Made by a program: the position numbers and the translations under genes
Notes under the pieces: generated by a model
What the model saw: only the letters and a program-made list of their open reading frames with translations
The model's database searches: none
Told to the model about the DNA's origin: nothing
Part shown: positions 13,507 through 24,836 of the stretch, one piece after another
How the letters are laid out: every line of letters begins with the position of its first letter
Position numbering within the stretch: the first letter of the stretch is position 1
Assembly: GCA_030668485.1 (NCBI GenBank)
Contig: DAOUTW010000013.1
Location: 2,902-66,901, forward strand
Origin: Candidatus Zixiibacteriota bacterium
Lineage (GTDB): Bacteria > Zixibacteria > MSB-5A5 > GN15 > JAAZOE01
Reading direction: 5' to 3'
DNA: 64,000 bases

Positions 13507-15180
13507 ATGAAAAGATTTTCGCTTTTGGTTTTTATCGTCGCGGTTTTCCTTACGATACCATTATTGGCGCGTCAAATCGATTCTGACATTATCCAGATCA
13601 AACTTAATCGAATCTATTTCGCATCGGGGAGCGAGAACGGAGTCCAGACCGGGGCATCGTTTAAGGTGGTTTGTTATGGCGATGAAGTTATTTCAGGGAC
13701 GATTGAGTATGCCGGTCCCGGCATTTCATTCAGCCGACCGTTGGCCGAACTTGACACTCTTGAGTTGGATGACGGATGCATCGCCAGACTGACTACATCC
13801 GGCATAGATTCCACCGCTTATGTTACTATCGGAACCGATATCCCGATTGAGTTTTTTGATCCCGAGCATGAGACTTTGTTTATCCGCCGGGCCGACACCG
13901 TAATTCCCAACCTGGTTGACTCGGCTCGTTTTTCAGGTAATTCGCTGATTCTTTATTTGCCACATGATATCAGATTTTCGGACGGGACGCCGTACAATGC
14001 TGAAGTGCTGGCATTCTACCTGCAGGATATCAAAGAGAAAAGCCGGTCATATCTGTCGCGCTACTTTTTTTCAAGACTGCTTCCGATCGATGCCGGGGGA
14101 ATTGAAATCATCGATAGTCTTACGGTCCACCTCAATTTTTATCATCCCTTCCCTCGGGCCGAGTATTTTTTGAGTCATCCCGATTTTTCCGTTTATAATC
14201 GATCGGGAGCCGGGACCGGTGTCTTAGCCAATGATTCCCTGACAAAAAGTAGTATCGGGAAGCGAGTATTCGTTCCTAACGGACATTATCGAGGGGAACC
14301 GCCGGCGTTTTCCAAGATGATAGTCCGATATTACGAGCAGCAGTACCGATTGAAATTTGCATATGAGAATCAGCAAATTGACGGTTTTATAGGTTTCGGA
14401 TTCGAGGCTGACCTGGCCGGATCGTATGAAGCGAGGGCCCTTTATCCGGAAATCGCGGTGATGATCGCGGGCATCGGCGGGAAACTTTTTTCGCAGGCTC
14501 GGTTTCCGACCTTTCTATACTATTGCTTTAACCCGTCGCTGTCACATTTGTACTTCCAGTATGGCGAAACGTCTGAGGTTAATCGTTGGGTTATGTCTTC
14601 GGCGACAGATCCGAATAGTAATCGTTTTTATCCTTTCGACTTTCTGGCGGGACGAAGACTTCATTCCTCAATCCGCTCGACTACCGATACCGCTCACCTG
14701 GTATACAGCCAGGTTTTGCTTTATGAAACAGCCCGTTACCTGGCCGATGTTGTCGCCCGTGAAGGAATGACAGCGCCGGTAAACAGGCAGGGATTCGGTG
14801 GAGAGTATGATATCCAACTGGCCTTTTTGCCAGCATCCGACAATATTATGCCGTTCGCTCTTTATGCCGCCGTCCTTGAATTCAACGACCAGAACGGAAT
14901 GCTGCCGGTAGATGAAAGATTCGATCGGCCGGGGTGGCAGGCTATGGCTTCCGGTTCGAGCCTCAGGGAGATTAAAAACCGCAATAATTTCTTTATCCGG
15001 GCCGAGGAAACGGTGGTACAGGATGGAGGTTTTTTTCCACTGTTTCGTCCCTATATTTATGCTGTGAGTTATGATAATGTTAAAGGATTGGATTTCGATT
15101 TTTACGGCTATCCGGATCTGGAAAAAATCGTGAAGTTTTCGGCCAGGTCTCAAGATGCCGGTGCGGAGGGCGGACCGTGA
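13507..15180 (+). CDS. Exported protein with family-5 solute-binding-protein-like region
   Basis: Signal peptide; LYLPHDIRFSDGTPYNAEVL motif typical of SBP_bac_5; stop overlaps the kinase start (GTGA). Confidence 0.55.
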   Translation: MKRFSLLVFIVAVFLTIPLLARQIDSDIIQIKLNRIYFASGSENGVQTGASFKVVCYGDEVISGTIEYAGPGISFSRPLAELDTLELDDGCIARLTTSGIDSTAYVTIGTDIPIEFFDPEHETLFIRRADTVIPNLVDSARFSGNSLILYLPHDIRFSDGTPYNAEVLAFYLQDIKEKSRSYLSRYFFSRLLPIDAGGIEIIDSLTVHLNFYHPFPRAEYFLSHPDFSVYNRSGAGTGVLANDSLTKSSIGKRVFVPNGHYRGEPPAFSKMIVRYYEQQYRLKFAYENQQIDGFIGFGFEADLAGSYEARALYPEIAVMIAGIGGKLFSQARFPTFLYYCFNPSLSHLYFQYGETSEVNRWVMSSATDPNSNRFYPFDFLAGRRLHSSIRSTTDTAHLVYSQVLLYETARYLADVVAREGMTAPVNRQGFGGEYDIQLAFLPASDNIMPFALYAAVLEFNDQNGMLPVDERFDRPGWQAMASGSSLREIKNRNNFFIRAEETVVQDGGFFPLFRPYIYAVSYDNVKGLDFDFYGYPDLEKIVKFSARSQDAGAEGGP

Positions 15181-16832
15181 CTTTCACCGGACGATTGCGT
15201 TTGACCCTGATACTGGCGGCGATATTTCCGACCGCTCTGATATCGATTATAGTCGTGATCGGTTTATCGCAACAAGTCAAGCGTATCGAAAACCGGGATG
15301 CGGAGGCGGCCTGTCTGAGATTTGCGGAATTGCTTGACAACACCTCCGCTCGCGCAAAGACAAATCTGCAATTTATTATTGACGGCCGTGAATTCCAGGT
15401 TATGGAATGGGGGCTGGACACCGACAAACCGCCTGATCCGAAATACCGGCTGCCCCTGTTATCGCTTGATTTTGTTGAATATCTGGATTCCGGCGGAATT
15501 GTCATGATATCGGCCGACCGACCGGGGCTGGTCGGGCATAAGATCGAGCTACCGCTGAGGAAAGAGCAAGTGTCTCGGAATGACCTGGTTTATGAGAACG
15601 ATCTGCACGGTTCGCATCCATCGCTGGCGATTATCATGCCGACCGAAAAAGGATATGTCAGAGGCGGTTTCTTCCTCGACGGTATATTCGGTAGTTTGGC
15701 GACGGCAGTCACCCGGTCTTCACTTGATTTCATAGATATCAGAGGAAAAGGCAGCGAGGCAGCGACATTCGAGTTGGCCGGCGAGGTCGGTGTGCCATAT
15801 CGCTCGGAGGAGAAGCTTTGCGCCGTGTTGACTTATTACCCCTGGAGTGAGTTTTACCCGATAGCACGGTTTCTGCCATATGAGCAGCAATCGTTGTTTG
15901 CTGACTTTTTTACGGCGGTAGCGGTGGTGACGATATTTTCGCTGGCTCTGATTATCCCGATCGGGCTCTATTTTTCGGCGCGGACGCGGCGGGAATTCGA
16001 GACCCTGAGCGGCGGCGCTGTGCGGGTCGCATCCGGTGATTTTTCACGCCCGGTGGTCATTACGAGCGAGGGAGAGTTTTCCGACCTTGCCGAATCGTTC
16101 AATCGGATGATGAAGCAATTGACCGATTATCGGAAAAAGTTGATCGTGTCGCAAAAAGTTGCAGCCTGGCAGACTATCGGCCGCAAGATCGCTCATGAGG
16201 TCAAAAATCCTCTTACACCGATCAGCATCGCCGTCGATGATCTCCGGAAAAGCTATCACGATTACCCGGATGAATATGAGAATATTCTGAATGACTGTGC
16301 GGCCACAATCAAAGGCGAGGTTGCTCGTCTTAAAAAACTAATCGATCAATTTTCGACTTTCGCTAAAATGCCTCCCCCCGAAATAACGGCGATCCCTGCT
16401 TCCGCTTTCATTCAGGATATTTCGGTGCTGTATAAGGAGGAGGTATCCGAGGGCCGACTGACCATCGAGAATAATCTCGATGATGCCTCTCTGAGGCTGG
16501 ATACTGAGCAGATGCGGCAGGTAATTATCAATCTGATTAAGAACAGTCTGGAGGCCGAATGCGAGCAATGCATTTTTCGGTTGGACAGATCCGACGATCG
16601 GATCAGATTGACGGTGGAGGACGATGGTCCCGGTTTGCCGGAAAAGATTTTGAATGAAGGACCGACTCCATATTATTCGACCAAAGAGAACGGCAGCGGA
16701 CTCGGTTTGATCATCTGCCAGCGAATCGTCTTTGACCACGGGGGCATGGTTAACATCGAAAACAAACCTGAAGGAGGGGCACGGGTGGTTATTACCCTGC
16801 CGGAAACAGATGACCAGAATATTAATCGTTGA
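15177..16832 (+). CDS. Membrane sensor histidine kinase with HAMP (NtrY-like)
   Basis: Two TM helices, HAMP, IAHEVKNPLTPI H-box, NLIKNS N-box, DDGPG and GSGLGL G-boxes. Confidence 0.9.
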   Translation: MTFTGRLRLTLILAAIFPTALISIIVVIGLSQQVKRIENRDAEAACLRFAELLDNTSARAKTNLQFIIDGREFQVMEWGLDTDKPPDPKYRLPLLSLDFVEYLDSGGIVMISADRPGLVGHKIELPLRKEQVSRNDLVYENDLHGSHPSLAIIMPTEKGYVRGGFFLDGIFGSLATAVTRSSLDFIDIRGKGSEAATFELAGEVGVPYRSEEKLCAVLTYYPWSEFYPIARFLPYEQQSLFADFFTAVAVVTIFSLALIIPIGLYFSARTRREFETLSGGAVRVASGDFSRPVVITSEGEFSDLAESFNRMMKQLTDYRKKLIVSQKVAAWQTIGRKIAHEVKNPLTPISIAVDDLRKSYHDYPDEYENILNDCAATIKGEVARLKKLIDQFSTFAKMPPPEITAIPASAFIQDISVLYKEEVSEGRLTIENNLDDASLRLDTEQMRQVIINLIKNSLEAECEQCIFRLDRSDDRIRLTVEDDGPGLPEKILNEGPTPYYSTKENGSGLGLIICQRIVFDHGGMVNIENKPEGGARVVITLPETDDQNINR

Positions 16833-18129
16833 CGATGAGCGGGAAATACGGAGCACTTTATCGGCGGCGCTCGGACGCCGGGGTTATAAGACCGATACCG
16901 CGATCAATATCGCGGCGGCGCAGGATAAGCCACTCGGCAAATACGACCTGGTACTTCTCGACGTGATGCTCCCCGATGGTAGCGGGCTGGATCTTCTACC
17001 GCATATCATGTCCGAGCCTGATCATCCTCCGGTGGTCATGATGTCGGGGGTGGCCGGGATTGAAACAGCGGTGGAATCGATTCACCGGGGAGCGGTGGAC
17101 TTTTTGGAAAAACCGTTGTCGCTCGACCGGGTGCTGGTCACTATAGAAAACGCCCTGAAGGCGGAAACGCTCAGAGCAGAAAACCTCTCTTTGTCGAAAA
17201 TGATTTATGGATCCTTCATTGGCGATTCGAATCATATTAAAAGAATAAAAAAGGAAATCGAGGCCACTGCCCCACGCTCGACGCGATTTCTGATTCTCGG
17301 AGAAAACGGCACCGGCAAGGAACTGGTGGCGCGCATGATTCATGAGCGAAGCCGTTTCGCCGAAGGGCGTTTTGTGCCGGTCAACTGCGCCGCCCTGCCG
17401 TCGGAGTTGATCGAATCGGAACTGTTCGGTCATATCAAGGGATCATTTACGGGCGCGGTAAGTGATAAAACCGGGCGATTTGCCGAGGCCGACCGGGGTA
17501 CTATCTTTCTCGATGAAATCGCCGATATGCAAGCAGAGGCTCAGGCGAAGATTTTGCGGGTTATCGAAGGTGGGGAATTACGCCCGGTAGGTTCGAGTGA
17601 AACAACACAGGTCGAATTGAATGTGATTGCCGCTACCAATCGTAATATCCTAAAACTGGTCGATGACGGTTCCTTCCGTCAGGACCTGTTTTACCGGCTC
17701 AATGTAGTGACTTTTAACCTCCCTCCCCTTCGGGAGCGGCCCGATGATATCCCTGCGCTCTACCAACATTTCCTCGAATTCTTCGCCCACCAAAGCGGAC
17801 GAGTTGCCGCAGTAGTGACGCCCGATGCGATGGAGTTGTTGACCCGCTATCATTATCCCGGAAATGTCCGGGAGTTGAAAAATATCGCGGAGCGTATTTC
17901 GATTTATGTCGATCATAAGGAGGCCTCGATAACCGATATCAGGCCGCTTCTGCCCCGTTTCGGCGACGAACCTGTTTTGGCCTTGAAAGAAGCAGTCGAC
18001 GAATTCGAAGCCGGTTATATCAGGAGGGTGATTGGCGCCTGCGGTGGTAACATGGCCGAGGCGTCCCGCAAACTCGGCTTGGAGCGTTCGCATCTTTATA
18101 AGAAAATAAAAAAACTGAACGGCGACTGA
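16810..18129 (+). CDS. sigma54-dependent response regulator (NtrX/NtrC-like)
   Basis: Receiver domain (ILIVDDE, LLDVMLP), GENGTGKEL, ESELFGH, FLDEIAD, C-terminal Fis HTH; true start ATG 16810. Confidence 0.92.
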   Translation: MTRILIVDDEREIRSTLSAALGRRGYKTDTAINIAAAQDKPLGKYDLVLLDVMLPDGSGLDLLPHIMSEPDHPPVVMMSGVAGIETAVESIHRGAVDFLEKPLSLDRVLVTIENALKAETLRAENLSLSKMIYGSFIGDSNHIKRIKKEIEATAPRSTRFLILGENGTGKELVARMIHERSRFAEGRFVPVNCAALPSELIESELFGHIKGSFTGAVSDKTGRFAEADRGTIFLDEIADMQAEAQAKILRVIEGGELRPVGSSETTQVELNVIAATNRNILKLVDDGSFRQDLFYRLNVVTFNLPPLRERPDDIPALYQHFLEFFAHQSGRVAAVVTPDAMELLTRYHYPGNVRELKNIAERISIYVDHKEASITDIRPLLPRFGDEPVLALKEAVDEFEAGYIRRVIGACGGNMAEASRKLGLERSHLYKKIKKLNGD

Positions 18130-18180
18130 TGAGTTTCGCCGAGACCGGAGATATTTACTCTCATATCATAATAATACTTG

Positions 18181-18209
18181 TTGCATAAAAAGGCGTCAAT
18201 GTCTATATT
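18181..18209 (+). promoter_or_regulatory. sigma70 promoter, exosortase locus unit 1
   Basis: TTGCAT-17 nt-TATATT; the same hexamer pair recurs at 23326-23354. Confidence 0.55.
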
Positions 18210-18307
18210 TGTTCCATAATACAATAGCCCGGGGGGATTGATCGGGCCATTTAATCGATTGTGTTACCATCTTTGAGTCTTCATCTATCATCTTATTTCC
18301 TCCCAAT

Positions 18308-18359
18308 ATCGTGATTGATCGACATCCTTGAGATTTACAACACGGTATCAATCATCGAT
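18308..18359 (+). promoter_or_regulatory. Leader motif copy 1: hairpin whose loop starts CGACATCCTTGA
   Basis: TTGATCGACATCCTTGA at 18315-18331; stem TGATTGAT 18312-18319 / ATCAATCA 18347-18354, extendable. Confidence 0.5.
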
Positions 18360-18462
18360 CTGCTCTTTCTCGGGGTGATATTTATTTTTGTACTCCGTTA
18401 AGATTTGGCGGTCGTGATATAGGCCTTGAGGTCTAAGCGGCTGCATTTCGAAAAGGTAGCTG

Positions 18463-19155
18463 ATGTCTCGTCGATATCACAAATCTCAAAGTGTTTCTGC
18501 AATTGATCGGGGTACTCATTCTATTCTTTTAATAATCCTGATGATTTCGAGCGGTTGGGGTATGGCTGCCGCATCCGGGACAACTTCTCTTTCATGGCTG
18601 GCGTGGATCGGTCTTATCCCGATATTTATTGCCATCAGGTCGTCTGTTCCCAGGGTGGCGTTTCTATACGGCGCTTTGTGGGGTGTCAGCCATTACTTCT
18701 TTTCGATGGCATCCGATGCCGCCACATTAATGGTAGCGATCTACTCGATCGGGCTGCTGACCACCGTTCCGGCGCTATACGCCTATCTCGGGGCGCGACT
18801 GACTCGCCGCTTTGGTTATCTGCCTCTGGTACTGGCCGTGGGTTGGATCTTAGTCGAGTTGGCCTTGCAACCGGTGGCGATGCAGAACGGTTTGCTGGCA
18901 AACTGCGTGAACAACGGCAGCCTTCTGAGCATTGTCGGCGGCGCTCTGGGTTATGTCTTTGTCGCCTTCTTTATAGTATATGTCAATGCGCAATTGATTT
19001 CGCTGGTCGGTAAAATCAATTTCATAGTTTCCCGCTTTTTTCTTTTGCCGATTATCGGAAAACAATGCGGGTTGATTGAAAATAAAAACCTGGCTTTACT
19101 TTCCGAATCACCTTTCAGTTATTCTCGTCCTCGTGCTCCTCCTCAAGTTATCTGA
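18463..19155 (+). CDS. Lnt N-terminal-domain-like membrane protein with C-terminal RAPP motif (putative arrest-peptide leader 1)
   Basis: WLAWIGLIP...AFLYGALWG...LAVGWILVEL...GYVFVAF..VN follows the Lnt membrane domain pattern; no nitrilase domain; ends SRPRAPPQVI. Confidence 0.75.
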   Translation: MSRRYHKSQSVSAIDRGTHSILLIILMISSGWGMAAASGTTSLSWLAWIGLIPIFIAIRSSVPRVAFLYGALWGVSHYFFSMASDAATLMVAIYSIGLLTTVPALYAYLGARLTRRFGYLPLVLAVGWILVELALQPVAMQNGLLANCVNNGSLLSIVGGALGYVFVAFFIVYVNAQLISLVGKINFIVSRFFLLPIIGKQCGLIENKNLALLSESPFSYSRPRAPPQVI

Positions 19156-19162
19156 TGCTCCT

Positions 19163-19181
19163 TGCCGCCATAACGGCGGCA
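19163..19181 (+). other. 7-bp GC hairpin just after leader-1 stop (no U-tract)
   Basis: TGCCGCC-ATAAC-GGCGGCA. Confidence 0.6.
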
Positions 19182-19252
19182 CAAACATCAAATAACGCAA
19201 GAATTATCAAATTATAACACCTCTGTTGTAATAACAGACGAGGAGGAATACT

Positions 19253-19678
19253 ATGTCTAAGAAAATGTTGTTTGTCGCGTTTATCACCTTGGGATTGATG
19301 GCCATGAATATTCCCGCTCTGGGTGCCAATGTTACAGGAAAAGTCATAGGGCGTGGCGAAGTAGGTATCCAAGGTGTGACTATTACGGTGGCCGGTACCG
19401 GGGCATGCGATGCGTATTCGACGACGACCAATTCCCTTGGCGAATTCATTATCGACTGCGACTGCGAGGCAGCAGGAAGTATAACCGCCAGCTTTTCGAT
19501 GGCGGGATACGCGCAGGCAGTGGCAACATACGATTGCGACATCCCTGAGAGTGATGTGATTATCATAATGCCGGATATCGGAGTTCCCTCAATGACCACT
19601 TATGGGGCCATTGTGCTGGTTTTACTTCTTGCCGCGACCGGTGTCTATATGTATCGTCGCCGCCGTGTGACGGCCTAA
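19253..19678 (+). CDS. IPTL-CTERM-type surface protein with carboxypeptidase-regulatory-like domain
   Basis: Signal peptide; VTGKV...GIQGVTITV...TTTNSLGEF; C-terminus VPSMTTYGAIVLVLLLAATGVYMYRRRR; SD AGGAGG. Confidence 0.85.
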   Translation: MSKKMLFVAFITLGLMAMNIPALGANVTGKVIGRGEVGIQGVTITVAGTGACDAYSTTTNSLGEFIIDCDCEAAGSITASFSMAGYAQAVATYDCDIPESDVIIIMPDIGVPSMTTYGAIVLVLLLAATGVYMYRRRRVTA

Positions 19679-19704
19679 GAGAAGTGTTTAACTGCAGTAT
19701 TGCG

Positions 19705-19731
19705 GGGCCGGAAGCAAGACTCTTCCGGCCC
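19705..19731 (+). terminator. Terminator ending unit 1
   Basis: GGGCCGGAAG/CTTCCGGCCC perfect 10-bp stem, weak U tail. Confidence 0.6.
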
Positions 19732-19876
19732 TGTTAATAGTAATAAAGTGCTTGTAAAAAATAGAATTGACTATATATTAGTTCTAAGGCAACCATATTA
19801 AATCAACCGGGCATAGATATTTAAGAATTTCTTTTTTTGGGTTTGCACGTCAAAAATTAAATCACATCACCCCACC

Positions 19877-19913
19877 GGTTGATCGACATCTTTGACAGAC
19901 TTTGTAATTAACC
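19877..19913 (+). promoter_or_regulatory. Leader motif copy 2: hairpin whose loop starts CGACATCTTTGA
   Basis: TTGATCGACATCTTTGA at 19879-19895 (16/17 identical to copy 1); stem GGTTGAT 19877-19883 / ATTAACC 19907-19913. Confidence 0.5.
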
Positions 19914-20039
19914 ACTATCCGAAAATTATCGGAGGGTGGTGGCTTAATTGTAGCGGAATCGCATTCCCCCAGTCGCAGACGAGTCGACTCCGGAATGCGA
20001 TATCTTGTGCTGTACGAATGATGAGATCAGGAAGGGTTC

Positions 20040-20729
20040 TTGTACGGGTTAAGGGAAAATTCAGACTATCGCTTGCCGGTTATCAATCGAATTGCTGAGA
20101 CAGTTCTGCTAGCCATACTTCTGATTGCCGGAGCATATTTCACAGCCGTTGTTACGGTTTCGCCGGCTCCTCCGTGGCTGGCCTGGTTCGGACTATTGCC
20201 TTTAATTCTTGCCATAAGGAATCTATCGCCGCGCTGGGCTTCAGCATCCGGGGCTTTGTGGGGATGCTGTCTATATCTGTTTTCGACGACAGTATCCGGC
20301 TCAGCGATATCAATGACGTTTTCCAATCTTCTTATCCTTGTTTTGATTCCAACCGCATATACCGGTTTAATGGGGTGGTACCGGCGTTCCTTTGGTTTCA
20401 GCCCGCTGGCGGTGGCGCTTGGCTGGGTGATTTTGGAACTGATCCTCAAGGCAACCGGCATCGGTGCCGGCATTCTATCGGCTGACCACGGATATGGTCC
20501 GTATTTTGATGTTGTCGCCAATTTCCTCGGCTATGGTTTTGTGGCCTTTTTAGTAGCTTATACAAACGCTGTTTTATTGTCATTCCCATGGCGCATCCGA
20601 TTTGATGTCGGATTGCTCCATATGACCAGAATTGTGGTGGGAGTCGAGCGTCCAACGGTTTTATTCGAACCCCACATACACTCGACATTTCACGCCCATC
20701 GGCGTCGACCGCGCGCACCTCCGGCATGA
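20040..20729 (+). CDS. Lnt N-terminal-domain-like membrane protein with C-terminal RAPP motif (putative arrest-peptide leader 2)
   Basis: Paralogue of 18463-19155 (WLAWFGLLP...GALWG...ALGWVILEL...GYGFVAF..TN); ends RRRPRAPPA; TTG start. Confidence 0.75.
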   Translation: MYGLRENSDYRLPVINRIAETVLLAILLIAGAYFTAVVTVSPAPPWLAWFGLLPLILAIRNLSPRWASASGALWGCCLYLFSTTVSGSAISMTFSNLLILVLIPTAYTGLMGWYRRSFGFSPLAVALGWVILELILKATGIGAGILSADHGYGPYFDVVANFLGYGFVAFLVAYTNAVLLSFPWRIRFDVGLLHMTRIVVGVERPTVLFEPHIHSTFHAHRRRPRAPPA

Positions 20730-20838
20730 TGACCGATCTGTCTCAATCGGTTTTATGAGAAGGAGTTTCCTTTAATCCTGAACGGGTCTTCACAGTCGAA
20801 AAAACCCGGCAGGATTGAACACTATAAAAGGAGAAAAT

Positions 20839-21909
20839 ATGCGTTACAAATCTTATCTAATGCTCCTGGCCGTTGCCGGCATGTTGGCGCTGCTTCTTGG
20901 TCAGACAGTAAGTGCCGAAAGCGATAAAATGATGCACTTTTACACCCTCAATGCGGCCGGAGAACATACTCTCACGGCGGTTTATGACGTCGATCTGGAT
21001 AAAGCCTTTACCGCTTATGCCGCCGACAAATCATCGGAATGGGGTACCGGGGTTTTGTATTTCAAGATTGGCGATGACAGAATGGAAAACATCGGGTCCA
21101 GCGAACATTTTATCGAGTTCCTGGATGCCAATTATGATAAAATGCCGGTTGATCGAGGTGATGCCTGCGATAATACTGTCACCGCGGTCTGGGTACTCAC
21201 TTGCCCATTCGATTGTACTCCAACCACTGACTGCGAGGAATGGGTCCATTATGTAGTGACAATCACCTGCCTGGACGATCCTCCATGTCCCCCCGAGGAG
21301 CCTTTATGCCTGCCCTTTGCCAATAGAATCTACGGATTTTCGACCGATCCCGTTCCCGCCTGTGTCTGTGTCGGCGGAGAGGGAGGAGTCTGTACTCTGG
21401 CTGATGGGGCGGAGGTAGACCTATTCTGGTCAGACGGTCCGGTATGTGAGTGCGCCGAGACGGCATCCGGAGCCTGCATGGTCGGTGAAGAGTGCTTTGC
21501 CGTGACAGGAGATTCATGTGCAATCCTGGGCGGCACCTTCTCGGGTGCAGGCACCGTTTGCGGGGCGGCACAGAGCGGAGATCATAATATCCCGACTCTT
21601 TCCGAGTGGGGTTTGATCATATTCTCGCTGCTGATTCTTTCGCTGGTGACTGTTGTGGTTACCCGTCGCCGGACGGCGACCTCCGCCGTCGGAGCCGGTG
21701 GTTCGATCACAATCAGCGGACCGACATTTGTCCCGGCTCGCTTTATGAAAGCGCTGGTGGTAACCCTAAGCCTGGCTGTCGTAGTCCTGGTAACGGCAAC
21801 CATCATGTCGGGCAGTATTCCCCTGCGTGATATTATCGGAACAATATTAAGCGCCGGTATCGTGGCTTATATCGTTCATCTTTGGATTGTACCCAAAGAG
21901 ACGGAATAG
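20839..21909 (+). CDS. Cys-rich exported protein with IPTL-CTERM motif followed by a two-helix membrane extension
   Basis: Signal peptide; GACMVGEEC...CAILGGTFSGAGTVC; IPTLSEWGLIIFSLLILSLVTVVVTRRR followed by about 78 more residues; SD AGGAG before ATG 20839. Confidence 0.85.
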   Translation: MRYKSYLMLLAVAGMLALLLGQTVSAESDKMMHFYTLNAAGEHTLTAVYDVDLDKAFTAYAADKSSEWGTGVLYFKIGDDRMENIGSSEHFIEFLDANYDKMPVDRGDACDNTVTAVWVLTCPFDCTPTTDCEEWVHYVVTITCLDDPPCPPEEPLCLPFANRIYGFSTDPVPACVCVGGEGGVCTLADGAEVDLFWSDGPVCECAETASGACMVGEECFAVTGDSCAILGGTFSGAGTVCGAAQSGDHNIPTLSEWGLIIFSLLILSLVTVVVTRRRTATSAVGAGGSITISGPTFVPARFMKALVVTLSLAVVVLVTATIMSGSIPLRDIIGTILSAGIVAYIVHLWIVPKETE

Positions 21910-21943
21910 TTCGGTTAATAATCGATAGAATAAACAGCGCTTC

Positions 21944-21976
21944 AATCCGGGCGGCCCAGTTGCCGCCCGGATTTTT
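21944..21976 (+). terminator. Terminator ending unit 2
   Basis: AATCCGGGCGGC/GCCGCCCGGATT 12-bp stem plus T-run. Confidence 0.75.
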
Positions 21977-22086
21977 GATACCGGTAAATTATATTGCCTG
22001 ATACACAGTAGTCTTTTCTTGACAGAGCGGGGACATAAAGATTACATTGGCGATGAGAGGCAGTTCGGGCAGTGCAGGGGAATCGA

Positions 22087-22656
22087 ATGAAAAAAAAGAA
22101 ATCACAACCGGTACAACGCAAACGGGGTTTGAAGTTCCGGCAGGTTATTGATGCCAATTGGCCCCTGTTCAAAATATATCTTCTGTTTGGTCTGGTGCTG
22201 CTGGTCCTGTTCACGATTATCATGGTCAAGCCGGTGTATTATGGGATCGTGATGCCGTTCAATAAGTTTCTGGCTCACTCCTCAGCTTCGGTGATCATAC
22301 TGCTTGGAGGCGATGATATTATCTGCTCCGGGACATCGGTTTCGACATCCGGATTCGCAATTGATATCGCCGAGGGATGCAACGGCATCTATGCTCTTTC
22401 GATTGTGATCGCCGGTATTATAGCCTTTCCCGCACCCTGGCGACCCAAATCGGTCGGATTGCTCCTGTCGATCATCCTGATCATGATCCTCAATTATATC
22501 CGTATTCTGACGTTGTGGTATGTGGGCAAGGCCGGTTCGTTTTTATTCGATGTCATGCATCTGTATGTTTGGGAATTTGTCATTATTGTGTTGGGGGCGG
22601 GGTTTTGGTATTTCTGGTATGAAAAATTTGTCAAGGCCCGCGCGGATTCTAACTAG
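22087..22656 (+). CDS. xrtH: Exosortase H (IPTL-CTERM-specific transpeptidase)
   Basis: Catalytic triad pattern IAEGCNG (Cys), NYIRI (Arg), MHLYVW (His) in a polytopic membrane protein next to IPTL-CTERM genes. Confidence 0.88.
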   Translation: MKKKKSQPVQRKRGLKFRQVIDANWPLFKIYLLFGLVLLVLFTIIMVKPVYYGIVMPFNKFLAHSSASVIILLGGDDIICSGTSVSTSGFAIDIAEGCNGIYALSIVIAGIIAFPAPWRPKSVGLLLSIILIMILNYIRILTLWYVGKAGSFLFDVMHLYVWEFVIIVLGAGFWYFWYEKFVKARADSN

Positions 22657-23239
22657 CGCGGCGCTATTTATCGTCTGTTATATTCCGGTCAGTCTGTTAT
22701 GGTCGCAGGCTTTGCCGTCCTACAGTCGCATAATAGCGGCTGTCTCCGAGACATTTGTCAATATAATCGAGTTTTCCGATACAACATACAGAATCTCGGT
22801 CGTAAATAATGATTTTCAGGTTATCGCGCGCCTATCGGTCGACGACAAGCGCGGGCGCAGCAAGATGTATAAACTTGACGGCACGAGAAAGGCCGATCTG
22901 GTCTCGTATAATCTAAGCCTCTGGTTTTGTCTGTTTGTGGCAACCTTTTACTGGGTCAACCCATCGGCCCGGTGGAAATATTTAGTCATCGCGCCGGTAA
23001 TTATAATCATTTGGCATGTCTGTGATCTTACCATATTTTCGAAAAATACACGCTGGATACTGACCAAAAGCCTGCATGAGCAGAACGCTTCAATGATCGA
23101 ATACAGTTACAGTTGGAACTGGTTCTGGTTCTGGGCCAAGGAACTCAACCGCCGTATCATCGATCCATTCCTACCGCTGTTGCTGTGGATAATCTTTTGT
23201 GCGCGGTCATTCTTTGGACATCGGGCTACGAATAGTTAG
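22619..23239 (+). CDS. Exosortase-associated membrane protein
   Basis: Overlaps the xrtH 3' end by 38 nt; several TM helices, YNLSLWFCLFVAT and IIWHVCDL segments. Confidence 0.6.
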   Translation: MKNLSRPARILTSAALFIVCYIPVSLLWSQALPSYSRIIAAVSETFVNIIEFSDTTYRISVVNNDFQVIARLSVDDKRGRSKMYKLDGTRKADLVSYNLSLWFCLFVATFYWVNPSARWKYLVIAPVIIIIWHVCDLTIFSKNTRWILTKSLHEQNASMIEYSYSWNWFWFWAKELNRRIIDPFLPLLLWIIFCARSFFGHRATNS

Positions 23240-23325
23240 CATGGCATAGGAATCTATCCGATCGCGATTTATTTTCCTTTACGCGAGACAGCCACACAAG
23301 ATTCCCTGCCTTTGTCATTATTTTC

Positions 23326-23354
23326 TTGCATAGATAATTATCATTTCATATATT
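23326..23354 (+). promoter_or_regulatory. sigma70 promoter, exosortase locus unit 3
   Basis: TTGCAT-17 nt-TATATT. Confidence 0.55.
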
Positions 23355-23718
23355 GCAAGCATTAGAGGGCATCATCATGGGCTATCATCTATTTTTGGAG
23401 TTGTTGATCGGTAATTAATGCCATCTATCGATCATTAGTTGTGGCTTTTCTGTTTGCCCTCTACTGTGGTATCCCTCACATCTCCACCTCATCCGCCATG
23501 CAGGGAATAATTGCTATGCGCGCATAGGGCATTGATCCACCCTATTATGAAAGGAGGAAACTTATCGAATACTGTGGTATGAAAGCTATTTCAATAACTT
23601 ATAGGAATAATTCTGTCACCGATATCGGCGGATGTAAAGTTGACAAAGCTGGCAGACGGGACGTCCGCAAGCCACAAAGTTGATACTAAACAACAGATCA
23701 CTGTGTAAGGAGATACAA

Positions 23719-24357
23719 ATGTTACGATTGAGATACGCATTTATCGGGATTATATTTATACTTCTAACACTTTTCAGCTTTTCCGGAGTTTTTGGAGCCG
23801 CACTCGTCGCAGAAATCAATAACTCCACCAACTGGGAAATGCACGTTCACAAGAAGATTTGGAAAAACGCCAATGGTGATGTTGTTAAAACCGTCAATAT
23901 ATCGCCTCATTGGGTTGTGGCTGCAAAGAGTACTGGCTCCAAGGGATTTACCATCCCTGAGGGCGCAAAGGACAACGAGTTCAAGTATTACTACAAAACC
24001 ACAGTCGATACCATTCATTGCAGCGTCTCAATGTATAATGTTGATGTGTGCTCATCGCCGATTGGTATGTACTATGACGCCGGCGGTGATACGCTCTATA
24101 CGGGGTACGATAGCGATGGACCCGAATCGCCCTTTTTCTGCACTTCGGAATTTGTTTATGATTCTCTTTCAGGCCAAATAAGTTGTTCCAATCCACCTGG
24201 TTCATACACCCCGGTTTTGGGCGGAACATTGAGAGAATGCATAAAGGTCCCCAGTATGAGTATGATCGGCCTCATAATCCTTGCGGTTCTTATGGTTATA
24301 TTGGGGGTATTTGTTATATATCGCAGGAAAAACGTCTTTGCAGGAGAATATTCGTAG
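23719..24357 (+). CDS. Third IPTL-CTERM-type surface protein
   Basis: Signal peptide; C-terminus VPSMSMIGLIILAVLMVILGVFVIYRRK; SD AAGGAG before ATG 23719. Confidence 0.8.
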   Translation: MLRLRYAFIGIIFILLTLFSFSGVFGAALVAEINNSTNWEMHVHKKIWKNANGDVVKTVNISPHWVVAAKSTGSKGFTIPEGAKDNEFKYYYKTTVDTIHCSVSMYNVDVCSSPIGMYYDAGGDTLYTGYDSDGPESPFFCTSEFVYDSLSGQISCSNPPGSYTPVLGGTLRECIKVPSMSMIGLIILAVLMVILGVFVIYRRKNVFAGEYS

Positions 24358-24370
24358 GCAAAAAGAAAAA

Positions 24371-24403
24371 ATGCGGTCGGGCGCATCATGTGCCCGGCCG
24401 CAT
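24371..24403. terminator. Bidirectional terminator between unit 3 and the atp operon
   Basis: 14-bp stem ATGCGGTCGGGCGC/GTGCCCGGCCGCAT with upstream A-run (U-tract on minus strand). Confidence 0.7.
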
Positions 24404-24438
24404 TAATCAACAGGGGGTGTTGCTTTACAAAAATATAT

Positions 24439-24836
24439 CTATTTCTTCTTCGCCACTTTCAAGCGGTTCTTAGCCCGTTCGTAGGCTTCTTTGGCTCGAG
24501 GAGTATCGATTTCACCGGCAGCATTGCGAACACGCTGTTTCGCCCGTTCCAGAGATTCTCTGGCGCGTTCGAGGTCGATATCATCGGCAAATTCGGCCGA
24601 ATCGGCGAGAATCGTGCAGGTATTGCTCGAATTCTCCATAAAGCCGCCCGACACCGCAATTTTTATTTCGTTTCCGGAACCGTCTTTTACCGACAGCTTG
24701 CCCGGTTTCATCGAGGTGATGATAGGAGCATGATTGGACATGATTCCCAAATACCCAACATCTCCGGGAGCGATGATCGAAACGACATCTTCCTCGTAGA
24801 CAATTCGTTCCGGTGTAACGACTGAGAGCCTAAACA

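Follow-up and report, generated by a model that had tools for sequence, protein, structure and literature searches.

When a ribosome stalls on the last codons of one gene, how is that event passed on to the gene behind it? The question is raised by a two-gene cassette, here called unit 1, on the forward strand of a 64,000-nucleotide (nt) stretch of DNA from Candidatus Zixiibacteriota bacterium (contig DAOUTW010000013.1; the whole stretch is referred to as the window, and positions are those of the window). The first gene of unit 1, the leader, encodes a polytopic membrane protein with the motif R-A-P-P close to its stop codon, and the second, the cargo gene, encodes a protein with a sorting tail of the exosortase H (XrtH) substrate type. 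The original prediction, made from the sequence alone, held that the codons of this motif double as an anti-Shine-Dalgarno element, and that a ribosome paused on them switches on the cargo gene. Based on the present analyses, we put the probability that a stalled ribosome unmasks the Shine-Dalgarno (SD) sequence in the clade of unit 1 at about 0.5. Outside this clade such unmasking is unproven.

The leader of unit 1 ends in S-R-P-R-A-P-P-Q-V-I-stop, which by direct reading is encoded by the codons TCT CGT CCT CGT GCT CCT CCT CAA GTT ATC TGA. In an alignment of 47 members of the leader family with 15-38% identity to the query (alignment A2), the only invariant columns are G163, R224, P226 and P227. 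In 66 leader-cargo units, the x of R-x-P-P is occupied 42 times by Ala, 23 times by Gly and once by Ser, and members outside the initial search pattern carry RTPP, RVPP, RDPP, RSPP or a longer tail. Between the motif and the stop codon there are 1-12 residues in the 66 units and 18-30 in four outliers. Saturation mutagenesis of the arrest peptides ApdA and ApdP found Arg and Pro to be irreplaceable, whereas at x Gly was tolerated fully and Ser, Asp, Pro, Val and Glu in part (PMC12992588), and judged from the sequences the variation at x in the family matches these arrest-tolerant substitutions. Since R-x-P-P is the most conserved feature of the family and its variation at x mirrors arrest tolerance, RAPP is by analogy almost certainly a ribosome-arrest motif here as well. 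The family also combines an R-[A/G]-P-P core near the C-terminus of a small (<300 amino acids, aa) transmembrane (TM) protein with a gene that follows on the same strand. With the stall geometry taken from the ApdA/ApdP work (PMC12992588), the ribosome would be expected to halt with Pro226 (19138-19140) in the P-site and Pro227 (19141-19143) in the A-site. It could be argued that RxPP rather acts at the level of the protein, for instance as a partner-binding cytoplasmic tail, and that it causes no significant arrest in this organism, the more so as RAPP arrest depends in part on the upstream context and on the ribosome of the species (PMC7897499, PMC12992588). We consider this very improbable: RAPP and RGPP stall ribosomes in many contexts and are purged from proteomes (PMC12992588), the motif varies in the way that arrest tolerance does (A and G, then S, D, T and V, with R and PP fixed), and it is always found close to a stop codon, with a gene on the same strand behind it.

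The position of the motif in the protein is constrained too. The last hydrophobic helix is separated from the P-site Pro that follows it by a median of 36 residues, most values being 34-40 (48 members, 15-38% identity), and would be located just beyond the exit tunnel at the moment of the stall. A helix just outside the tunnel at the stall is typical of force-released arrest peptides, and the 36-residue spacing suggests that release depends on the force exerted on membrane insertion. At the codon level, the P-site Pro is CCU in 24 of the 66 units against 14.3 expected from locus usage (p ~0.004 if the units are independent). The A-site Pro is CCG in 42 of the 66 units (loci L001-L086) against 23.9 expected from the Pro usage of the loci, an excess that could stem from a selected preference for one tRNA-Pro in the arrested complex; in unit 1 the A-site Pro (19141-19143) is CCU, unlike the prevalent CCG.

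To follow the link to the cargo gene, we folded the unit 1 RNA from 19100 to 19275. Its minimum free energy (MFE) structure has −46 kcal/mol (z = −4.66), and 0 of 200 dinucleotide shuffles were equally stable. The structure holds an 8-bp helix, 19137-19144/19240-19247, in which the motif codons UCCUCCUC (DNA letters TCCTCCTC by direct reading) are fully complementary to the SD GAGGAGGA, and which is prolonged by GUG 19133-35 pairing with UAC 19249-51. Each of the eight pairs has an ensemble probability of 0.81-0.83. The sequences and positions that the original prediction had given for the Ala-Pro-Pro-Gln codons and the SD are correct on direct reading, and the folding check that it had proposed came out in its favour: the pairing is found in the MFE structure as well as in the ensemble (0.82), and a footprint constraint opens the SD. 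Of the two hairpins it had placed between the helix arms, the MFE structure contains the one at 19163-19181 (19163-19169/19175-19181), while the one at 19222-19238 gives way to 19211-19219/19224-19232. An alternative pairing of CUCGUC (19124-29) with GACGAG (19237-42), also part of that prediction, has a probability of 0.002 in the free RNA and gains importance only if 19137-44 is under a ribosome and 19124-34 is free.

The effect of a ribosome was modelled by shifting a footprint of 31 nt (or 28 or 25 nt) codon by codon along the leader. The SD, which is unpaired with a probability of 0.015 in the free RNA, reached values of 0.4-0.6 only when the P-site was on the codons at 19126-19144 (R-P-R-A-P-P-Q), and in constrained folds with the ribosome on RAPP the probability was 0.46-0.61. 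For a ribosome further upstream or at the stop codon it was only 0.05-0.2. On the stop codon, the ribosome uncovers the stretch CUCGUCCUCGU (19124-19134), which recaptures the SD in the constrained folds; this stretch is not conserved in the 67% ortholog (alignment A3). As for SecM, MifM and VemP, the other arm of the SD helix is thus predicted to lie inside the stalled footprint. Because a ribosome on RAPP, and not one at the stop codon, opens the SD, the modelled layout of unit 1 is what a stall-specific switch requires.

How much of this pairing would be expected by chance was estimated by recoding the approximately ten codons under the footprint synonymously, such that the same peptide was kept. 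The pairing of the unit 1 SD with the footprint amounts to 10.99 nt against 3.3 ± 3.65 nt in this null, and is equalled by 2.5% of the recodings (p = 0.025). The energy needed to open the SD is 13.8 kcal/mol as compared to 9.5 ± 2.4 kcal/mol for dinucleotide shuffles of the upstream RNA, 7% of which were as high. A mock-footprint control modestly favoured the real footprint (Wilcoxon p = 0.008), a comparison that is confounded by the distance to the SD. In the predicted ensemble the pairing of unit 1 is real and dominant. It stands out only moderately, since complementarity to a strong SD is inherent in Pro-Pro codons. These values leave some room for the view that the pairing is incidental and that the RxPP pause serves the leader, for example by timing the insertion of its last helix or by keeping the mRNA tethered to the membrane, where the secreted cargo would then be made. 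This view takes UCCUCCUC:GAGGAGGA as a by-product of Pro-Pro codons and a strong SD, with any translating ribosome giving ordinary translational coupling. The average of 3.3 paired nt among the synonymous versions, the 7% of shuffles that match the native RNA in SD occlusion, the missing family-wide excess of SD occlusion (see below) and the tight 36-aa spacing from helix to stall, which points to a function in protein insertion, are all consistent with it. Plain coupling sits badly with the footprint scan, where the ribosome at the stop codon leaves the SD closed and the one on RAPP opens it.

Comparison between loci weakens the incidental view further. In the syntenic clade of unit 1, located behind the same sigma-54 response regulator, the SD is paired to the region of the stall site in five of the seven members. 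The 67%-identical ortholog at locus L088 retains CCU-CCU and a 6-bp CUCCUC:GAGGAG helix. At L090, with 50% identity and an unrelated spacer of 48 nt, GCUCCUCCUUCC pairs with GGAAGGAGGA, and stalling raises the unpaired probability of the SD from 0.02 to 0.46, which was matched by 0 of 100 recodings. The SD also pairs with the footprint region at L089 and L092, weakly so at L093, and not at L091. In alignment A3, which contains the sole DNA-alignable ortholog (86% identity), the pairing is retained with no compensatory change. Across the order, the SD-to-footprint pairing exceeds the 95th percentile of the synonymous null in 13 of 48 units, as opposed to 2.4 expected; in some of these the partner of the SD is formed by the RxPP codons and in others by the codons just before or after them. 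That so many units fall in the top 5% of the null, and that the pairing of the clade recurs across unrelated spacers, speaks against a mere by-product, and we regard the incidental view as unlikely.

Several observations nonetheless weigh against the unmasking of the SD as the general output of the stall. The mean probability of the unit 1 helix ranges from 0.36 to 0.90 with the choice of the folding window, larger windows giving only 0.36-0.43, and all folding results are thermodynamic predictions at 37 °C for an uncultured organism, nothing in them being experimental. Some of the pairing comes for free, as Pro-Pro codons are intrinsically anti-SD-like and the null mean of unit 1 is already 3.3 paired nt. 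In the family as a whole, no more than 6 of 66 units pair at least 4 nt of the SD with the RxPP codons. SD-to-footprint pairing is missing from about half of the units, and the paralogs of the same genome in units 3 and 4 show essentially none. In an independent extension set drawn from other families of the class, 2 of 18 units were significant. The mean opening energy of the SD in the family is 7.23 kcal/mol, compared to 7.17 kcal/mol with shuffled upstream RNA (p = 0.8); with the opening energy equal to the dinucleotide-shuffle null, a family-wide SD occlusion was rejected. The claim that a stalled ribosome unmasks the SD holds in silico for unit 1, with the pairing kept in most of its clade, and is unproven elsewhere in the family. 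The expectation that the choice of CCU-CCU would be conserved in orthologues fails across the family: the first Pro is CCU in 24 of 66 units, CCG is as common there, and CCU-CCU is found in few, so that conservation of this codon pair was rejected too. Finally, the work on the known arrest peptides ApcA, ApdA and ApdP revealed no hairpin that would sequester the SD (PMC7897499), and CruR acts by blocking Rho-dependent termination (PMC9426467).

The example of CruR, the only RAPP leader with a dissected output (PMC9426467), suggests another route, by which the stalled ribosome would either shield a rut-like, C-rich and G-poor stretch or block Rho from reaching RNA polymerase and so let transcription run on into the cargo gene, the anti-SD pairing being secondary or irrelevant. 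Such control would account for the family-wide lack of conservation of the SD pairing, and a Rho gene is present (702 bits, above the cut-off). In 48 units, an excess of C over G is centred on the stall site (C/G 1.3-1.9 from −45 to +15, <1 elsewhere), and positions 19100-19219 of the window contain 21-27 C versus 11-14 G per 80 nt; this C excess is largely forced, however, by the R-A/G-P-P codons themselves. Moreover, the 97-nt spacer between leader and cargo gene in unit 1, with its two stable hairpins, would be poor RNA for the loading of Rho, the leader has neither DUF2946 nor CxxC (Pfam gave LNT_N only), and a Rho model leaves the significant codon-level pairing of the SD in the unit 1 clade unexplained. 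We therefore consider Rho control an unlikely explanation for unit 1. What emerges for the family is that the presumed RxPP stall is universal and that its wiring to the downstream gene varies: the SD has the RxPP codons as its direct partner in the unit 1 clade and a few other units, neighbouring codons or relays are involved in some, and about half of the units have no recognisable pairing.

For unit 1, SD unmasking would work as follows. Leader and cargo gene would form a cassette on one mRNA, and in the free mRNA the pairing of UCCUCCUC with the SD, as predicted by folding, would close the cargo gene. The C-terminal R-A-P-P, if it behaves as the known RAPP and RGPP motifs do, would halt elongation when Pro226 occupies the P-site and Pro227 the A-site. 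The parked ribosome would cover the UCCUCCUC arm together with the upstream anti-SD-like stretch, and the modelled SD opens. Once it is open, 30S subunits could start on the cargo gene. What releases the stall is probably the pull that arises as the last membrane helix of the leader inserts, and translation of the cargo would consequently be permitted only during the insertion of its partner membrane protein and at the site of that insertion. In a broader and more speculative interpretation, each XrtH cargo would have its own Lnt-TM-like partner, which would be a functional membrane subunit and a force-sensing arrest leader at once, thereby providing a co-translational assembly checkpoint for every cargo. 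The stall might then, though we hold this to be doubtful, report either insertion of the last helix or engagement of the exosortase pathway, and license translation of the cargo on the same membrane-tethered mRNA. An equally tentative corollary is that Pro-Pro codons predispose RAPP arrest motifs to act as their own anti-SD.

What kind of protein is the leader? A Pfam search gave a match of residues 30-176 to LNT_N (E 3.8e-5) that at 24.4 bits stays below the gathering score of 27.1, while a search of NCBIfam with the leader gave no match. An AlphaFold2 (AF2) model built from a 47-sequence alignment (predicted local distance difference test score, pLDDT, 78.5) is a helical membrane bundle of 6-7 helices with a tail that is disordered from about residue 200. 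With Foldseek, the top 19 matches in the PDB were all Lnt, over the TM domain, with probabilities of 0.90-1.0, TM-scores of just 0.38 and E-values of 0.06-0.8. The leader is not Lnt, however, because it has no nitrilase domain: the C-terminal CN-hydrolase domain with its Glu-Lys-Cys triad is absent, and the protein ends at residue 230. True Lnt genes (~500-540 aa) are present separately in the same genomes as the leader family. The JGI annotation of several members as 'apolipoprotein N-acyltransferase' is misleading, because these members lack the catalytic domain.

The host genome has four leader-cargo units, of which two are in the window and the other two on separate contigs, C78 and C48. 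The leaders of these paralogous units are 25-33% identical, and every one ends in PRAPP or GRAPP. Family members are ~180-285 aa long. Matches were obtained in 31 of 160 genomes of the order, those in two being true Lnt genes of ~535 aa, and in a sample of the class in 89 of 285 genomes; single genomes of this sample have as many as 7 copies, and the copies number more than 130 overall. A profile scan of contigs with the paralog alignment gave 2 loci and a metagenome scan one relative with 39% identity; close orthologs were obtained solely via protein search and contig look-ups. The nearest named records are metagenome-assembled genomes of Planctomycetota/Phycisphaerae and one Zixiibacteriota record. 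One family member, P0042, which ends in FRPRAPPRPLNY, is labelled Candidatus Zixiibacteriota, and because of this label the family may extend beyond the Planctomycetota. Tandem arrays of leader-cargo units on single contigs are frequent (L090 2430-2983, L052, L041, L047). L052 carries two near-identical units, and at L090 a second LNT_N-like gene immediately follows the cargo gene.

The genes behind the leaders are as uniform as the leaders themselves. A same-strand gene follows the leader in 66 of 66 units after a spacer of 28-312 nt (median 98). Its product has a basic N-terminus in 64 of the 66, and P-x-[LMI]-[ST]-x-x-G followed by a TM segment and a basic tail is found in 52 of the 57 complete open reading frames (ORFs). 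What this gene encodes is nearly always a protein with a signal peptide and an IPTL/VPSLT-CTERM sorting tail. Two of the five complete ORFs outside this tail pattern are variants visible by eye, including that of unit 2. The tail of the unit 1 cargo was also recognised by eye, its TIGR04174 score being below the threshold. XrtH was detected in 27 of 29 family-positive genomes as compared to 21 of 131 family-negative ones, and the two family-positive genomes without it are 69% and 86% complete. XrtH and cargo with a sorting tail, the components of an XrtH / IPTL-CTERM system, occur together here. Three XrtH-like genes were noted in the host genome (C128:8697-9158; C36, which is the window; C41:7454-7834).

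RAPP and RGPP leaders, which precede a wide variety of genes, form an established class (PMC12992588, Fujiwara 2025), with ApdA, ApdP and ApcA as arrest peptides of this type (Sakiyama 2021, PMC7897499; Morici 2024, PMC10951233). The present family shares with these three the C-terminal R-[AG]-P-P with invariant R and PP, the length below 300 aa, membrane-targeting segments and the short spacer to a same-strand gene. It differs in that its leader, a full polytopic protein of Lnt-TM-like type, is conserved from end to end, whereas theirs are short secreted or single-TM peptides, that the downstream gene encodes exosortase cargo and not Sec/YidC machinery, that the cassettes are multi-copy (up to 7 per genome), and that the arrest codons themselves form the predicted SD-sequestering helix. 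With SecM-secA, MifM-yidC2 and VemP-secDF2, unit 1 would have in common that a nascent-chain stall holds open an SD-sequestering mRNA helix, and the spacing from targeting or TM segment to stall suggests force-dependent release in the same manner. Unlike in those systems, the arrest sequence belongs to another class, the anti-SD consists of the arrest codons, the pairing is conserved in part of the family, and the genes to be regulated are XrtH-type cargo rather than Sec, YidC or XrtH, with no obvious feedback loop. CruR (Bp2923, DUF2946) of Bordetella pertussis likewise has a C-terminal RAPP, three residues before the stop, heads an envelope-protein operon and keeps a fixed spacing from sensing element to RAPP; unlike the leader here, it is an exported, copper-sensing CxxC protein that acts on Rho-dependent termination (PMC9426467). 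From Lnt itself, which is similar in the fold of the TM domain (LNT_N match, Foldseek), the leader is set apart by ending at ~230 residues without a nitrilase catalytic domain.

Relative to the known RAPP leaders, what appears to be new is a full-size Lnt-TM-like leader that is dedicated to exosortase-H cargo and whose arrest codons serve as anti-SD in one clade, a picture that we infer beyond the sequence and the predicted folding. In PMC12992588 the link to IPTL-CTERM proteins appears in the supplementary tables only, the main text containing neither 'exosortase' nor 'sortase', and our full-text literature search returned essentially nothing on XrtH. For the field, the route from stall to downstream gene is solved for one RAPP/RGPP leader only, namely CruR, through Rho, and unit 1 with its clade offers a compact and directly testable case of arrest codons as anti-SD. 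In addition, a large unannotated family of membrane proteins (~30% of genomes in a planctomycete class) becomes tied to exosortase H / IPTL-CTERM. That system is experimentally untouched, and the family would be its first regulatory handle, besides hinting at an Lnt-like partner dedicated to every cargo. If true, this would amount to a per-cargo checkpoint for exosortase sorting that is distinct from Sec/YidC feedback. The features of the locus are listed in the Table.

Table. Features of units 1 and 2 and of the neighbouring xrtH gene, with positions in the window.
Feature	Positions	Strand	Description	Basis
Leader gene, unit 1	18463..19155	+	230-aa polytopic membrane protein resembling the Lnt transmembrane domain	ORF list, Pfam, AF2, Foldseek
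Second, upstream anti-SD-like stretch CUCGUCCUCGU	19124..19134	+		Constrained folds; alignment A3
RAPP codons CGT GCT CCT CCT	19132..19143	+		Sequence; R, P, P invariant in alignment A2
Anti-SD UCCUCCUC	19137..19144	+	5' arm of the predicted SD-sequestering helix; codons GCU-CCU-CCU-C	MFE helix, pair probabilities
Intergenic GC-rich hairpin UGCCGCC/GGCGGCA	19163..19181	+		MFE; kept in ortholog L088
Second intergenic hairpin AUUAUAACA/UGUUGUAAU	19211..19232	+		MFE
Shine-Dalgarno GAGGAGGA of the downstream gene	19240..19247	+	5 nt upstream of ATG 19253	
Downstream (cargo) gene, unit 1	19253..19678	+	141 aa; signal peptide, CarboxypepD_reg-like domain, VPSMTTYG + TM + RRRR sorting tail (XrtH-substrate type)	
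Hairpin GGGCCGGAAG/CUUCCGGCCC	19705..19731	+	3' of the downstream gene; possible end of the two-gene transcript	Read by eye
Unit 2 leader paralog	20040..20729	+	33% identity; ends RRPRAPPA-stop, codons CGC GCA CCT CCG	
Unit 2 downstream gene	20839..21909	+	IPTL sorting motif mid-protein	TIGR04174, 28.3 bits vs 20.5
Exosortase H (XrtH)	22072..22656	+		TIGR04177, 101.1 bits vs 86 cut-off

A promoter scan of the + strand of the unit 1 spacer found no promoter-like site, and an intrinsic terminator in this spacer was rejected, the hairpin at 19163-19181 having no U-run behind it. The hairpin 3' of the cargo gene lacks a T-run and is absent from the calls of the terminator scan. A search of Rfam with 18100-24500 returned nothing relevant.

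In unit 2, the IPTL motif of the cargo is located at residues 259-286 of 364 and is followed by more hydrophobic segments. This cargo resembles the 'midcut-by-XrtH' type (NF033207), the match being weak and below the cut-off. The predicted fold of the unit 2 RNA (20712-20844) is relay-like: the CUCC of the RAPP codons (20719-22) pairs with a decoy GGAG (20762-65), and the true SD at 20829-20834 is held by UUUCCU (20766-71), which adjoins the decoy. In addition, GCGCA (20713-17) pairs with UGCGU over the start codon, and a hairpin that begins 2 nt past the stop codon is followed by UUUUAU (20731-52).

Further genes surround the two units. The 3' end of xrtH overlaps with an ORF for a 239-aa membrane protein (22520-23239) that lacks both a family match and RxPP and stands outside the leader family. 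A VPSMS-CTERM gene lies at 23680-24357 with no leader of the family before it. Directly upstream of unit 1, at 13507-18129, are genes for a histidine kinase and a sigma-54-dependent response regulator. A search for sigma-54 promoters found no site upstream of either leader in the window, the total number of matches being under the chance level. The best partial match of the response regulator is the PEP-CTERM-box regulator TIGR02915, below the cut-off. It is syntenic on four orthologous contigs (L088, L089, L091 and L092), on the first of which the kinase is present as well.

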